From a virus (lineage: Duplodnaviria > Caudoviricetes): DNA of 30,777 bases. The translations under genes and the position numbers were made by a program. The DNA lies in IMG/VR virus record IMGVR_UViG_3300018405_000049, positions 1 through 30,777 of that record, one strand, 5' to 3'. The notes beneath the pieces were generated by a model, which was given only the letters and a program-made list of their open reading frames with translations, made no database searches and was not told where the DNA came from. Shown here one piece after another: positions 515-29,404 of the stretch (position 1 is its first letter; each line of letters starts with the position of its first letter).

Positions 515-1375
515 TTAAATTAAACCTTGGTCTTGAAAGCTTTTTTTCATTGCAAAGAAAATATCCGATCGTAGTTTAACAACATCATTGACCACATAAT
601 GCCCTGTGTCTAAATCTTGAAACGGGCGTTGTATGGCATTAACAAGTTCTCGTTGGGTCGCCTCTCCAATGATATATCCGCGGTTATTGGGTTTTGGAAT
701 TGCAAATTTATACGTATCAACACTCGGATCAATATCGTATTCTGTATATATCACTTCTTGATCAAGATCGTTTACAGCGTCAGCGTATTCTGTTAGATTT
801 CCGTATTCACGACGTAACTTATCAAACTCGGTCTTCTCAAGTTGTACGTGTTGCGTAATAATATATCGTCGAGAGTCTGGATCCTTAGTCGGATATTGCA
901 ATGCGTTCTTCACTTCCGCGTCATTACACCAATGAACAGATCCGTCGTAACTAACTAGTTCTCGATTTAAGCGACCAAATCCGGTATTTGATCTTTGTAA
1001 ATCAGCAGCAGAATATGTTGTGGGGTTTCCATACTTAGAATTTAACATCGCAGTTATAGTAGCCACCGGTAAAGATTTATAAACCTCTTTTACAACCATT
1101 TCTTCGACTCTTTGAGCTATCGATGTTGTGAGATCTACAAGTTCACTCTTTGGAATTCGACTTTCAAATACTAAGTCATTAGTAAATATATCTTCTTTTT
1201 GTAGGAGCTCCATATAAATTTTGTCTTTTAATCTAGGACTTCGGTCATACCCCAACTGCCAGCATCTAAATGCAAAAGTATATGCTTCGTCCTTAGAAAT
1301 GTTACTAGCCTCTAATACATGTTTTTCAATTCGCTCAATATACTCTTGTTGTTCCTTTGGCATTTGTTCTCCCAT
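515..1375 (-). CDS. Hypothetical protein (~286 aa)
   Basis: Long ORF. ATG at 1375 preferred over the track start 1393 because AAAGGAG lies just upstream. No recognisable motif. Confidence 0.75.
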   Translation of the reverse strand: MGEQMPKEQQEYIERIEKHVLEASNISKDEAYTFAFRCWQLGYDRSPRLKDKIYMELLQKEDIFTNDLVFESRIPKSELVDLTTSIAQRVEEMVVKEVYKSLPVATITAMLNSKYGNPTTYSAADLQRSNTGFGRLNRELVSYDGSVHWCNDAEVKNALQYPTKDPDSRRYIITQHVQLEKTEFDKLRREYGNLTEYADAVNDLDQEVIYTEYDIDPSVDTYKFAIPKPNNRGYIIGEATQRELVNAIQRPFQDLDTGHYVVNDVVKLRSDIFFAMKKSFQDQGLI

Positions 1376-2287: not shown

Positions 2288-2613
2288 TTATTGCCCATAA
2301 TTTTTTATTTCGTTTATAGGGACGCCCTTTAAAATATGTTCGTCATCGTTTGGTGTATATGAACCTTTTTCAAACATAAAAGCAAGCATCGCAAAGTTCG
2401 CAACATCTACTAAATAATCTTTGTTCCCGGTTTCTATCCACTTTTGCAAACGAATATATATATATTATCTGTTGCGCTTATTGGGCACGTTGTTCGAGCA
2501 TAATTTTCCTTAGCTGGTCCGTATTTATGAAAACTTACAACCATAGCATTCTTACGCTTTTCGTCAAATGATTCGCTATATTCTGTTTTTAAAACTTGTT
2601 CTGGATTATTCAT
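2288..2613 (-). pseudogene. Frameshifted phage gene (107 aa if one AT unit is removed from the (AT)6 tract at 2454-2465)
   Basis: ATG 2613 with GGAGG RBS gives MNNPEQVLKTEYSESFDEKRKNAMVVSFHKYGPAKENY..., stopping after 59 aa. A second frame continues RLQKWIETGNKDYLVDVANFAMLAFMF... to TAA at 2288. The frames join exactly at the AT repeat. Confidence 0.75.
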
Positions 2614-2647
2614 AATATCTCCTCCTTAGTGTAGAAAAAATAAAAGA

Positions 2648-2720
2648 AAAAGAATATGGGAGTTGAACCCACAATCCACAGCAATACTGCTATGTGCTCT
2701 ACCGAATGAGCTAATTCTTC
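2648..2720 (-). ncRNA. tRNA-like cloverleaf with non-canonical anticodon arm (pseudo-tRNA or tRNA mimic)
   Basis: GAAGAAT-TA-GCTC ATTCGGTA GAGC-A-CATAG CAGTATTG CTGTG-GATT-GTGGG TTCAACT CCCAT-ATTCTTT-T: 7-bp acceptor stem, canonical D arm with GG, canonical TTC T-loop. The anticodon loop is 8 nt without U33 and there is no encoded CCA. Confidence 0.75.
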
Positions 2721-2748
2721 TTCATTATAGTACTTGTAATTTTCGCGT
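2720..2748 (-). promoter_or_regulatory. Phage promoter-like motif copy 1 (ACGCGAAAATTACAAGTACTATAATGAAG)
   Basis: One of three 29-bp gapless copies (2720-2748, 3083-3111, 29376-29404), directly upstream of the tRNA-like element. Confidence 0.7.
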
Positions 2749-2774
2749 AAAAGGAAAAGAAGCAGTTAGCTTCT
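2749..2774 (-). terminator. Intrinsic terminator
   Basis: AGAAGC-TAACT-GCTTCT hairpin followed by TTTCCTTTT, overlapping the stop of the 2766-3050 gene. Confidence 0.55.
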
Positions 2775-3050
2775 CTGATCCCAACCAAGCACTCTAAATG
2801 TTTCTTTAGCACTTTTACTAAGTTCAGATTCATCTTCTGTTTCTTCCTCATACAATTCACTATTATTTTTCTTTGATGTAAGTTTATCTTTAAGCGCTCC
2901 GACTGCTCCAATTACGGCAAAACTACCAACACAAATACCCGCTACTCCAACATTCATTAGGATTACTCCTTTCCAATGTTTCTTGTAGAATGTATTTGAT
3001 GCTTCCTGTAATACCGCATAATCTTTACAAAATTCTTTAACTGCTTTCAT
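2766..3050 (-). CDS. Hypothetical single-pass membrane protein (94 aa, MKAVKEFCKD...)
   Basis: ATG 3050 has a GGAGG RBS, so the track start at 3137 is likely over-extended through the promoter motif. Central hydrophobic segment and acidic tail. Confidence 0.7.
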   Translation of the reverse strand: MKAVKEFCKDYAVLQEASNTFYKKHWKGVILMNVGVAGICVGSFAVIGAVGALKDKLTSKKNNSELYEEETEDESELSKSAKETFRVLGWDQRS

Positions 3051-3082: not shown

Positions 3083-3111
3083 CTTCATAATATAGCTTGT
3101 ATATTTCGCGT
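3083..3111 (-). promoter_or_regulatory. Phage promoter-like motif copy 2 (ACGCGAAATATACAAGCTATATTATGAAG)
   Basis: Matches copies 1 and 3 without gaps and lies ~30 bp upstream of ATG 3050. Confidence 0.7.
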
Positions 3112-25487: not shown

Positions 25488-28487
25488 TTAATTATTCACT
25501 CCTTTCCCAAGTGTGTAATTACTTACAGTTGTGGCTGATACACCTATAGCTTTTGCTATTTCAGAAGTGGTGTAACCAGACGCTATCATTGCTTTTATTT
25601 TGTTCTTTTGAACAGGTGTTATGCTAGTCGTAGCTCTTGGTGTTGCTCTTTGTCTAAGCGTATCCGAATCTACATGATTGATGATCTCTGATAACTTATT
25701 AGGGCTTATAGCGCCAGCCTGTATTGCTTCCCATTCTCTATCACTAATAGGAATAGGTTCTCTTTTAGCACCAACAGCTAGTCTAGCTTTAACTAACTCT
25801 TGTTGACTGGCCTTCTTTATCTCACCTGAGGTCATATCGGGGTTGTCTTGTTTCTTTGCATTTATAACAGAATTAGCTATTGTTTGTGCATATCGTTCTC
25901 TAGCAGAATTCTTCTTAGAAATGTTTAGATTTGCTAATAGGGTGTTAACTTCTTGTTGATAAGTTTCTTTAGCAGAACTATTGTACTTGATATCTTCTGT
26001 GGAGATCATCTCTTTTCTAGCAGAGTTAGCTAACGCTTTCATTTGATTAGCGTATTCGCCATACAATTTTTCTTGTTGAGTGCCGGACGATAATGCTAAA
26101 GCATCTTTAGCCTCGGCCATCTTAGTACTAGGTTGTGTTCTCTCTTTAGTTTTCACTACAAAGTCATTAGTAGATTCACCATTCTCAACAGCTTTTCTAT
26201 ATGCTGCCATTTGTTCATTTGTTGGTTTCTCTAATTTCTTAGTCGTTGGATTACGATATTTAACAACATCATATGAACCATCGTTTCTAGTATCAACAAT
26301 AAAGTCGTCTGTGTTATCTCCATTTAATACTGCTTTTTTATACTGACTTAATTGAACAGCTGTTGGTTTTGTCAATTTTCCAGTAGTTGGATCTTTGTAT
26401 TTAACTACATCATAAGGAGTACTCGCTAATTTATACTTAAGTTCACCTGTGTCTGGATCAATTGTAGGGCTTCCTTTTCTCTTAAGAACTGAGGTTTCAG
26501 ACTTAGAACGAGAAATTAAAGTGGACGCGCCTTCTTTATATCGACCGTTTTCGTCTATCTTACCCTGATATTTTTTCTTTAGCAAAGCTATATTATTATC
26601 CAATTCACTCTGTTTGTAATCTAAATGATGTTTCTCGGCATCAATAACAACCATGCTATGTCTTACCGCTTTTGCTAATTCAGGCTCAGTAGCACCTTTT
26701 AATGTCATGTCAGTGATTAAATTAGAAATTCGACCCATCTCGGTTTGGGTGTTTCGCATTGGTCTGAATTCCCTATCGCCGCGATAATAATGTTCTGTTC
26801 CATCAGAATCTTTTGTAACTTTATCATATTGATATGATGACTTTGTATCAAACCCCTCTAATCCTTTTAACGGTTTGGTTGACAATATATTAATTTTATT
26901 GCCTGTTGGTATTGTCATAACTGCATCGCCGTCAAAGTCAGCACCCGATAATCTTTCGGCAACTTTACTATTTATACCTATAGCATCTACTGCATTACCT
27001 AAGATTCTAGCAGCATCTTTATGTTTATTGTTAACTGTTAGTATCGGTATTTCAAAAGTTCCACCATGCGGAAATCGAATTAACGCCAGTTTTTCCCCAT
27101 TTTGATAGGTTGGCGCATATACTTCAGTATCAGGAAGCGTTGTAACTGGAAGTATAACTTTATATTTTTGTCTAGGTAAAGCGGCGGCTTGCAAATGTAC
27201 TGCTGCTGAATCACAATCCTCAGCAAAAGTTTTAAGCATTACTTTTTTAATTGTAGGATTTGTTAATGCTTTTATTTCTTCATATTCAGCCACTTTATTA
27301 GCCGATGCGAGATTTAATTGCTTTTCGATTAATTGTTTTGGTTGCTTCGATAGAAATTGTGATGGTAGATGATCACTCCAATCACCCCAATCACCTTCTT
27401 CGGCTCTTTTATTAATTAATGATAGAGATTGTTTCTTGCCAGTGACAGGGTCTGTATAATCACCATTTGGGTCGTCATAGTATTTCTGTCCGCCAGCTTT
27501 AATTAAAGAACCAAAAGGATTATCAGGATCGGCGCTAATCTTTTTAAGAACATCCATCTTAGGAGTTCCTACTTTTTTATTAGTATTAAACATAACATCT
27601 ACGCCATCCGGTAGATCATCAGAATATATAGCCATACCTTTAAGATATCTATTGCCATCAACCAAAATTCTAACTTGAGCATAGTGTGAATTACCAAGAG
27701 ATAAATCTTCAACACCTCTGCGAAGCTCTATTACGCCATCTTTATGGACGCCTCCTTCTTCTGCGTATCGAATTTTTAATCTGCTAGAATCCATACTTTT
27801 AGGATATACAAAAGCATTAAAGGTATCGCCGCCATCATGTGAAACATATTTATCGACAATGCTATTGATCTTGTCAAATTGGTATATTTCTTTATGCTCT
27901 GTTCCTGGCGGACACAGTACTGTTAACGTTGTCATTTTTCCCGGATTAGTTACTTGTGGAACTCGACCGCCATATGTAGGGTAGCCATCTAATTCGCAAA
28001 TATACAGAGCCTCTTTCATTTTTTCTGGAGAAACACCTAAACTAATATTGACACCGGCCCCAACTTCAACCATTCCTAACTCATCAACTCGTGATTTAAG
28101 GAAGTCTGCTGTTTTTTTAGCCTGATTCATTCTGGCCTCGGCACCTTCATCCAAAAGTGATCTAATTGATGAGTCGTTATTATAACCCATTTCTTTTGTG
28201 ATTTGGGCTAAACTTAATCCGTTATCTCGTAATGTTTTAGCTCTGGCTGCTTCTACAGCTCTTCGTTCATCTCTTGCCAAAGATCTCTGAACTCTAAACT
28301 GAGTGGTTGTTAAACCCATTGCTTCTGCTATGTCATTATCGCTCTTACCGCTATCTTTCATCTCTTCATATCGACTAATAAAATCGCCACTATGTTGATG
28401 GGGGTTTTGACCAGACCCCCATGGATAACGACCAGATCTTCTAAGAACTCCGCTATGTTGGAGTATTTCTTCAATGATTGGATTCAT
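25488..28487 (-). CDS. Putative single-chain two-barrel (DPBB) RNA polymerase with terminal HTH domains
   Basis: LSGADFDGDAV (DFDGD at 26925-26939) preceded by ALIRFPH (RxP motif). HTH-like segments near the N-terminus and at the C-terminus (GYTTSEIAKAIGVSATTVSNY). Confidence 0.75.
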   Translation of the reverse strand: MNPIIEEILQHSGVLRRSGRYPWGSGQNPHQHSGDFISRYEEMKDSGKSDNDIAEAMGLTTTQFRVQRSLARDERRAVEAARAKTLRDNGLSLAQITKEMGYNNDSSIRSLLDEGAEARMNQAKKTADFLKSRVDELGMVEVGAGVNISLGVSPEKMKEALYICELDGYPTYGGRVPQVTNPGKMTTLTVLCPPGTEHKEIYQFDKINSIVDKYVSHDGGDTFNAFVYPKSMDSSRLKIRYAEEGGVHKDGVIELRRGVEDLSLGNSHYAQVRILVDGNRYLKGMAIYSDDLPDGVDVMFNTNKKVGTPKMDVLKKISADPDNPFGSLIKAGGQKYYDDPNGDYTDPVTGKKQSLSLINKRAEEGDWGDWSDHLPSQFLSKQPKQLIEKQLNLASANKVAEYEEIKALTNPTIKKVMLKTFAEDCDSAAVHLQAAALPRQKYKVILPVTTLPDTEVYAPTYQNGEKLALIRFPHGGTFEIPILTVNNKHKDAARILGNAVDAIGINSKVAERLSGADFDGDAVMTIPTGNKINILSTKPLKGLEGFDTKSSYQYDKVTKDSDGTEHYYRGDREFRPMRNTQTEMGRISNLITDMTLKGATEPELAKAVRHSMVVIDAEKHHLDYKQSELDNNIALLKKKYQGKIDENGRYKEGASTLISRSKSETSVLKRKGSPTIDPDTGELKYKLASTPYDVVKYKDPTTGKLTKPTAVQLSQYKKAVLNGDNTDDFIVDTRNDGSYDVVKYRNPTTKKLEKPTNEQMAAYRKAVENGESTNDFVVKTKERTQPSTKMAEAKDALALSSGTQQEKLYGEYANQMKALANSARKEMISTEDIKYNSSAKETYQQEVNTLLANLNISKKNSARERYAQTIANSVINAKKQDNPDMTSGEIKKASQQELVKARLAVGAKREPIPISDREWEAIQAGAISPNKLSEIINHVDSDTLRQRATPRATTSITPVQKNKIKAMIASGYTTSEIAKAIGVSATTVSNYTLGKGVNN

Positions 28488-29375: not shown

Positions 29376-29404
29376 CTTCATAAAAGGACATGTTTTTTTC
29401 GCGT
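29376..29404 (-). promoter_or_regulatory. Phage promoter-like motif copy 3 (ACGCGAAAAAAACATGTCCTTTTATGAAG)
   Basis: Matches copies 1 and 2 and heads the nuclease-nuclease-RNAP operon. Confidence 0.7.

Follow-up and report, generated by a model that had tools for sequence, protein, structure and literature searches.

Evidence for a conserved family of tRNA-shaped phage elements that may act as elbow decoys

The window analyzed here, a stretch of 30,777 nt that forms part of a siphovirus genome, carries on its minus strand a tRNA-shaped element belonging to a family that is spread over phages of two host phyla. That this family is real and under selection we regard as almost certain. Judged from sequence and predicted structure, its members are likely transcribed into an unprocessed small RNA of ~85 nt, which would engage host proteins that recognize the body of tRNAs and so act as a decoy (probability about 0.45). 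The most likely targets would be tRNA-attacking defense or toxin enzymes.

The genes for terminase, portal, a protease-capsid fusion, tail proteins and holins are located on the minus strand of the window. The element lies after the holins, among small cassettes that are each headed by a repeated promoter-like motif, for which we counted five matches in the window with up to two mismatches (0.82 expected). Copy 1 of this motif adjoins the 5′ end of the element, as an earlier note on this DNA had reported, and its TATAAT stops 3 nt ahead of G1. We infer that the putative phage RNA polymerase encoded in the window may use these promoters. A DxDGD-bearing homolog has been proposed, in the accessible part of a preprint (bioRxiv 10.1101/842583), as the signature of a phage group that spans Actinobacteria and Firmicutes hosts. 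By this polymerase-like gene, relatives of which occur in 250 named phage records, the window belongs to the Actinobacteria-Firmicutes phage supergroup (1706-, Oengus-, AM/AU/AW/BI/CC/DJ-like). A related promoter motif was described for the cluster DJ phage Vardy and is read there as a sigma-70 -10 box, according to the available part of that paper (PMC9671010).

Table 1 Features of the window around the tRNA-shaped element and of its promoter system.
Feature	Position	Strand	Basis
tRNA-shaped element, 73 bases	2720-2648	minus	ARAGORN and Rfam tRNA model
Acceptor helix	2720-2714 with 2655-2649	minus	7/7 pairs, the first being G-U
U8/A9 connector	2713-2712	minus	sequence
U8-A9 connector and D arm with G18G19	2696..2713	minus	Rfam, fold
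D stem	2711-2708 with 2699-2696	minus	sequence, Rfam, fold
G18G19 in D loop	2703-2702	minus	sequence
Anticodon arm, predicted closed 7-bp hairpin with 4-nt loop, no anticodon	2677..2694	minus	fold
Anticodon stem	2694-2690 with 2681-2677	minus	sequence
Anticodon loop, 8 nt without U33	2689-2682	minus	sequence
T arm (T loop 2667-2661)	2656..2672	minus	Rfam, fold
T stem	2672-2668 with 2660-2656	minus	sequence
Closing helix, 5′ strand, 10 bp	2714..2723	minus	fold
Closing helix, 3′ strand, no CCA	2646..2655	minus	fold
U tract, predicted termination site	2635..2645	minus	sequence; 10 U in 11 nt
Phage promoter-like motif copy 1 (CGC...ACA...TATAAT)	2724..2747	minus	exact match
Promoter motif copy 2, ahead of 94-aa ORF 3050-2766	3087..3110	minus	motif scan
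Third promoter-motif copy, one mismatch, ahead of nuclease and polymerase genes	29380-29403	minus	motif scan
Terminator-like hairpin directly ahead of promoter copy 1, ending the preceding cassette	2756..2776	minus	terminator scan
Ribosome-binding site (2627-2621) and start codon of downstream ORF; no promoter between element and ORF	2613..2627	minus	sequence, ORF list
Putative phage RNA polymerase, 999 aa, phrog_4291, phage-group marker	25488..28487	minus	1217 bits

The Rfam tRNA model scores the element (Table 1) at 43.8 bits (E 6.3e-7; cut-off 29), and ARAGORN calls it a tRNA of undetermined type (tRNA-???) and not a tmRNA. Read on the minus strand, the D and T arms, U8/A9, G18G19 and the acceptor pairs are intact, as the earlier note had it. 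The predicted fold likewise matches its description of a loop that can close further into the stem, and we confirmed the lack of CCA and the T-rich tract behind. Beyond these points, the 3 nt between TATAAT and G1 lengthen the acceptor helix to 10 bp in the predicted fold, A3 pairs with U70, and U15/U48 stand in place of the 15:48 pair, which makes this copy an exception within the family. The 84 nt from 2723 to 2640 fold with a z-score of -4.4, with none of 200 shuffled sequences folding as well, and a terminator scan flagged the T arm together with the U tract. With a sigma-70-type start near 2717 the acceptor helix is lost in the predicted fold.

Contigs from all three DNA runs, two of which may be the source of the window, span the element without difference, and a 54-kb contig from another assembly, possibly of the same campaign, is identical at this site. 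The element is therefore not an assembly slip, an explanation that the earlier note had considered. No RNA dataset was listed as containing the stretch. From one run guessed to be RNA came one contig of 198 nt (2643-2839, depth 4.3), in which the anticodon arm is unchanged and positions 8 and 15 differ; since contigs show neither ends nor strand, we do not count it as evidence of expression. Compared with a gut member of the family, this run gave short tRNA-like pieces only.

Behind the element, two ORFs of 59 and 53 aa (2613-2288, minus strand) overlap at an AT dinucleotide run near 2466-2455. They may derive from a single gene divided by slippage, with an identical division in the three DNA runs and in the other assembly. 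The second part resembles phage hypothetical proteins, and tblastn of both ORFs against named phages gave no match. The adjoining noncoding stretch 2197-2288 is common to other contigs in all four runs compared and is perhaps a genome-end or repeat region.

The recurring layout of the family consists of promoter motif, closing helix, D arm, closed hairpin, T arm and U tract. A weak BLAST match led to the same layout in the saliva phage D_HF5_2C, and further members were identified in the Rhodococcus phages ReqiPoco6 and ReqiPepy6 and in the Gordonia phage Pherobrine. A pattern combining promoter and D stem was found at 121 IMG/VR loci out of ~430 estimated. Over all collected loci there were 140 pattern matches, 122 of which could be parsed with a T arm, yielding 84 distinct cores and 43 types at 85% similarity; after one locus lacking a true T arm (L137) was dropped, 42 types remained, including the window. 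The 18 unparsed matches comprised 13 of an oral type with a bulged T stem, three cut by locus ends and two with an altered T loop. A second scan, run on bacterial genomes with promoter and T loop and not asking for a D arm, gave 115 matches, 61 of them with a paired T arm, in 36 types. A tRNA D arm is present in 27 of these types, with six D-stem variants, and 18 of the 27 are new, so that the union with the 42 comes to ~60 types. Four pattern matches turned out to be ordinary CCA tRNAs without promoter, as were two matches of one early pattern ordinary tRNAs, and all were rejected.

Carriers include contigs of the isolates Hungatella hathewayi WAL-18680, Ruminococcus torques ATCC 27756 and Clostridium leptum DSM 753 as well as cultured phages of Rhodococcus, Gordonia and Lactococcus. 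We ran a covariance model without the promoter on 30 of 80 polymerase-selected records, namely those of at least 45 kb. It matched 14 of the 30, among them 12 of 18 near-complete records, one of which does not hold the element, leaving 11 of 18, several being close kin. The real matches all lie directly behind the promoter motif or a close variant, and model hits in G050 and MT835495 were rejected on inspection. Among 15 named records, the Lactococcus phages 1706 and P078 carry the element and one match was an ordinary tRNA; the element is absent from the 12 actinophages of this set, and a second search over the whole or partial sequence of 11 of them also found none. The polymerase-like gene is present in all 17 near-complete carriers tested, a count that is favored by the promoter in the search pattern.

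Usually there is one copy per genome. A few genomes have two or three (L009:700-900; L012 and L014; G026; G060), some in tandem, each with its own promoter. In larger genomes (L085, L135 and L255; G024 and G028), a series of ordinary tRNA genes begins with the element or with a D-arm-only variant. In oral phages (L007, L010 and L012-L015), the sequence directly after the element is noncoding and conserved and contains a further T-loop-like motif; an Rfam search of this stretch in L013 gave no match.

The stems of the element covary. In a MAFFT alignment of 38 types that was not fitted to structure, 89.2% of the cells were paired, compared with 69.0% after shuffling, and 18 of 23 pairs showed two-sided change; slid controls gave 37-56%, and the D stem is invariant in this alignment by construction. 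All 42 types have GG (G18G19) in the D loop and all have G53-C61, the parser having required the T-loop motif. The tertiary 15:48 pair is present in 33 of 39 types and in 22 of 27 of the genome set. It is made up of G15-C48 in 19 of 23 and A15-U48 in 14 of 16 types (Fisher p 1.8e-5; control columns unlinked), a link that could partly be inherited from different parent tRNAs; the types are not independent. Among close relatives in 15 types we counted 14 stem changes, of which five were compensatory and none broke a pair, and 15 changes at 90 anticodon-loop sites versus one at 60 core T-loop sites. The anticodon stem has at least 4 bp in 39 of the 42 types (mean 5.1 versus 3.1 in shuffled sequences), and the loop on it ranges from 3 to 29 nt. 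Only two of the 42 types, and none of the 27, have a canonical-looking anticodon loop; CCA is encoded by none in either set. A pyrimidine occupies position 73 in 41 of 42, and the closing helix has 7-14 pairs, with an unbroken 7-bp register in only 22 of 42. Thus selection acts on the elbow shape and not on decoding or charging. The search for homologs and covariation suggested by the earlier note thus returned a large family with a variable anticodon loop, which supports its view of a tRNA mimic as opposed to random decay; relatives with a normal 7-nt loop, which would have spoken against that view, are confined to the two types mentioned.

We compared 63 distinct promoters from 24 records: the base directly following the motif is G in 57, and a ribosome-binding site starts at +1 to +3 behind six of them. 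A start just after TAWWAT therefore fits better than the usual one 6-7 bases later, and the transcript of the element is predicted to start at about 2723. The G at +1 pairs with C in 10 of 40 cases, which is no enrichment over the 27% expected by chance, so that the exact start is not fixed; positions +2 to +5 are modestly enriched. In phage 1706, the closing helix is interrupted and much longer (roughly 25 bp by eye), and it too extends to the base that directly follows the promoter. Behind 37 of 42 types there is either a U tract or a separate hairpin terminator. In 30 of 42 types an ORF follows directly with no promoter in between, and these downstream ORFs belong to many unrelated families. 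In seven of 42 types, a new promoter follows within 80 nt behind the element in at least one member each, as it does in P078 and G042. No ORF family tracks the element (118 families; 15 carriers versus 9 non-carriers), and close relatives with and without it exist.

The slot between promoter and terminator can also be filled otherwise. Across the site, G064 is 92.8% identical to the carrier G060; its promoter, closing helix and U tract are the same, but they enclose another structured RNA (L299:17334-17455, ~115 nt; also in L510 and L520). This RNA, as we see it, resembles T-box Stem I, an assignment that we dropped as Rfam gave no match, and a pattern scan for it returned three near-identical copies only. 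Other slots hold a bare hairpin (L488), T-loop-only or D-arm-only forms, and some copies lack the T arm or the D arm (L137, L255, L392); the tRNA-shaped form is the commonest cargo seen. A second slot type (L392, L441, the second match in L458, and L497) keeps the T-loop-like arm and has the D arm replaced by another shared motif; it matched no Rfam family. In L441, a Marmoricola MAG contig, a Pistol ribozyme match above cut-off (646-684, plus strand) lies ~300 bases from an element of this second type.

We propose that transcription would start at about the base that follows TAWWAT; the enzyme may be the polymerase of the phage itself. The first bases would pair with the 3′ strand that runs into the U tract, by which both ends would be protected, and part of the transcripts would stop there. 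The RNA would then fold into an L shape that can neither be charged nor decode. In the last and weakest step, it would occupy a host factor that needs the elbow and not the anticodon or CCA. This proposal builds on the existence of the family and its place behind the promoter motif, the covarying stems and the 15:48 pair, the free anticodon loop, the missing CCA and acceptor identity, and the U tract or terminator. Stand-alone copies and the selection on tertiary contacts favor the decoy reading. The element is accessory, being present in 11 of 18 near-complete polymerase-selected records, and host-interaction genes usually are accessory. Several observations count against it: the slot can accommodate a bare hairpin or other structures, so selection may in part concern only the closing helix; the copy in the window has no 15:48 pair; the ORF without intervening promoter in 30 of 42 types suits a role in cis; and the majority of known anti-phage tRNases recognize the anticodon arm, the loop of which is unconstrained in this family. 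Phage rescue tRNAs, in the part of the study available, worked where tested by replacing the cut tRNA and not by protecting it (P2-OLD, PMC12445682), which counts against a decoy as well. As a broader and tentative idea from these sequence data, a phage group spanning two host phyla may have made tRNA a dedicated RNA weapon, in which uncharged, non-decoding, end-sealed elbow mimics expressed from phage promoters would soak up host defense enzymes that recognize tRNA. They would correspond, at the RNA level, to sponge and DNA-mimic anti-defense proteins and would be one of several interchangeable cargoes of a cassette made of promoter, closing helix and terminator.

The alternative that comes closest places the function in cis. 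A folded 5′ end could stabilize the downstream mRNA against 5′-3′ decay, or the element could be an attenuator or a nascent-RNA antitermination signal, such as put of HK022, that sets read-through. The element begins at the predicted start site, an ORF with its ribosome-binding site directly behind is the rule (30/42 types), and an unrelated structured RNA (G064) or a bare hairpin (L488) can occupy the same slot, all of which suits such a leader. A plain hairpin would suffice for it, however, which leaves the selection on G18G19, T loop and 15:48 unexplained; the downstream genes are unrelated, and copies with a new promoter at once behind (7/42) have no target in cis. We consider a cis leader possible but doubtful. 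The partner could also be a protein of the phage, such as the polymerase of the group, a virion component or a replication protein, for which the RNA would be a handle or regulator and not a host decoy. The polymerase-like gene in 17 of 17 near-complete carriers and the usual single copy per genome would agree with this, but the link to the group is partly built in because the promoter was in the search pattern, many group members lack the element, and the comparison of 15 carriers with 9 non-carriers revealed no ORF family that tracks it. We hold such a phage-directed role to be unlikely.

The earlier note had also considered an RNase P/Z processing signal for the downstream mRNA. Both enzymes would then cut at the tRNA fold, in the manner of a t-element, and release this mRNA; a CCA-tailed mimic is a further form of this reading. 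Both enzymes read the elbow and top half of a tRNA, which are intact here, and the YrlA RNA of M. smegmatis is cut by RNase P and gains CCA (PMC4201824, accessible part). Such processing is quite improbable in this family, in which the 7-bp register is unbroken in just over half of the types (22/42), the closing helix continues past the cut sites, base 73 is almost always a pyrimidine, and some copies stand alone with a new promoter directly behind. Sensing through the 3′ end in the stringent response or by T-boxes, another suggestion of the note, requires NCCA, which no copy encodes. Decay of captured tRNA genes, whose remnants would persist among the repeated promoters, could account for the patchy presence, for copies without T or D arm and for the two canonical-looking loops. 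It is largely refuted, and we give it very little chance, by the 0 of 14 stem changes that break a pair, by the maintained anticodon stem and by the uniform loss of CCA with gain of a closing helix in phages of two host phyla. The idea of a working four-base (frameshift) tRNA was prompted by the copy in the window, with its 8-nt loop on a 5-bp stem, and we consider it refuted, as loop length varies from 3 to 29 nt, the loop is predicted to zip up, and U33, CCA and acceptor identity are lacking. Neither decay nor a four-base tRNA fits a family with such loops, only two of 42 canonical-looking, and CCA in none of 42.

Phage tRNAs are explained as substitutes for the tRNAs of the host. No such substitution is open to this family, and still phages of Lactococcus, of gut and oral Firmicutes, of Rhodococcus and of Gordonia have conserved its L-shaped core, which points to a use of the tRNA shape in infection that is independent of translation. 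Current annotation misses or mislabels the family, as "tRNA-OTHER" or not at all. The cultured phages 1706, P078 and Pherobrine and the sequenced gut isolates make it amenable to test, and it offers a handle on the predicted promoters and the putative polymerase of this phage group. In the literature searched, mostly without subscription journals or the original Rhodococcus phage paper, we found no published description of the family, nor did we in the accessible parts of PMC13313380, PMC11008172 and PMC10264068. The family may thus be a variant of tRNA mimic without a published description found, a view on which the original Rhodococcus paper and the models of PMC10690425 may bear.

Compared with known systems, the family shares the cloverleaf order, the consensus of the D and T loops and the 15:48 pair with phage tRNAs (RF00005), including anticodon-nuclease-resistant ones in the available parts of PMC10264068 and PMC12445682, and the element scores above the Rfam tRNA cut-off as they do. 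It differs from them in that no rule governs the anticodon loop, CCA is not encoded, the helix is longer than 7 bp and base 73 is a pyrimidine; by its sequence, a family member should be unable to replace a host tRNA. Measured against a canonical tRNA, the D and T arms with their invariant bases are thus present, while the 7-nt loop with U33 and purine 37 and the 7-bp acceptor with discriminator and encoded CCA are not, nor is the conserved 8-nt loop with U33 of a quadruplet tRNA. The GenBank records of ReqiPoco6 and ReqiPepy6 list "tRNA-OTHER" features that are family members, annotated only as tRNAs of undetermined type, and in Pherobrine, 1706, P078 and D_HF5_2C the element carries no annotation. 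A set of 10,006 viral structured RNAs, also mined from IMG/VR, contains tRNA-like candidates, five of which overlap ARAGORN tRNA calls (PMC10690425, accessible part). In that part the layout of the family is not described and six member motifs are absent from the three supplements searched; other model files of that study may contain a match.

The bacterial Y RNA YrlA resembles the family in its D and T arms, tRNA tertiary contacts, covariation, lack of an anticodon and occurrence in phages, as far as described in the accessible part of PMC4201824; there, the tRNA module is permuted with a closed acceptor stem, whereas the family keeps the tRNA order with open ends. Elbow contacts under covariation are common to both. 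Rfam gave no YrlA match for the family members searched, and a search for a TROVE (Ro60/Rsr) gene yielded none in 23 carrier records, the control being positive in 2 of 14. By this analysis, the family would work most like the YrlA tRNA module and yet falls outside the Y RNAs, being unpermuted and without TROVE. The tRNA-like domain of tmRNA and the species 1 RNA of T4 are tRNA mimics without an anticodon that keep a 7-bp acceptor with CCA. The family is likewise a tRNA mimic without an anticodon; the window's element lacks the Ala acceptor with CCA and the tag reading frame of a tmRNA, having A3-U70 instead, and, in contrast to both RNAs, what the family keeps, without CCA, is the D/T elbow.
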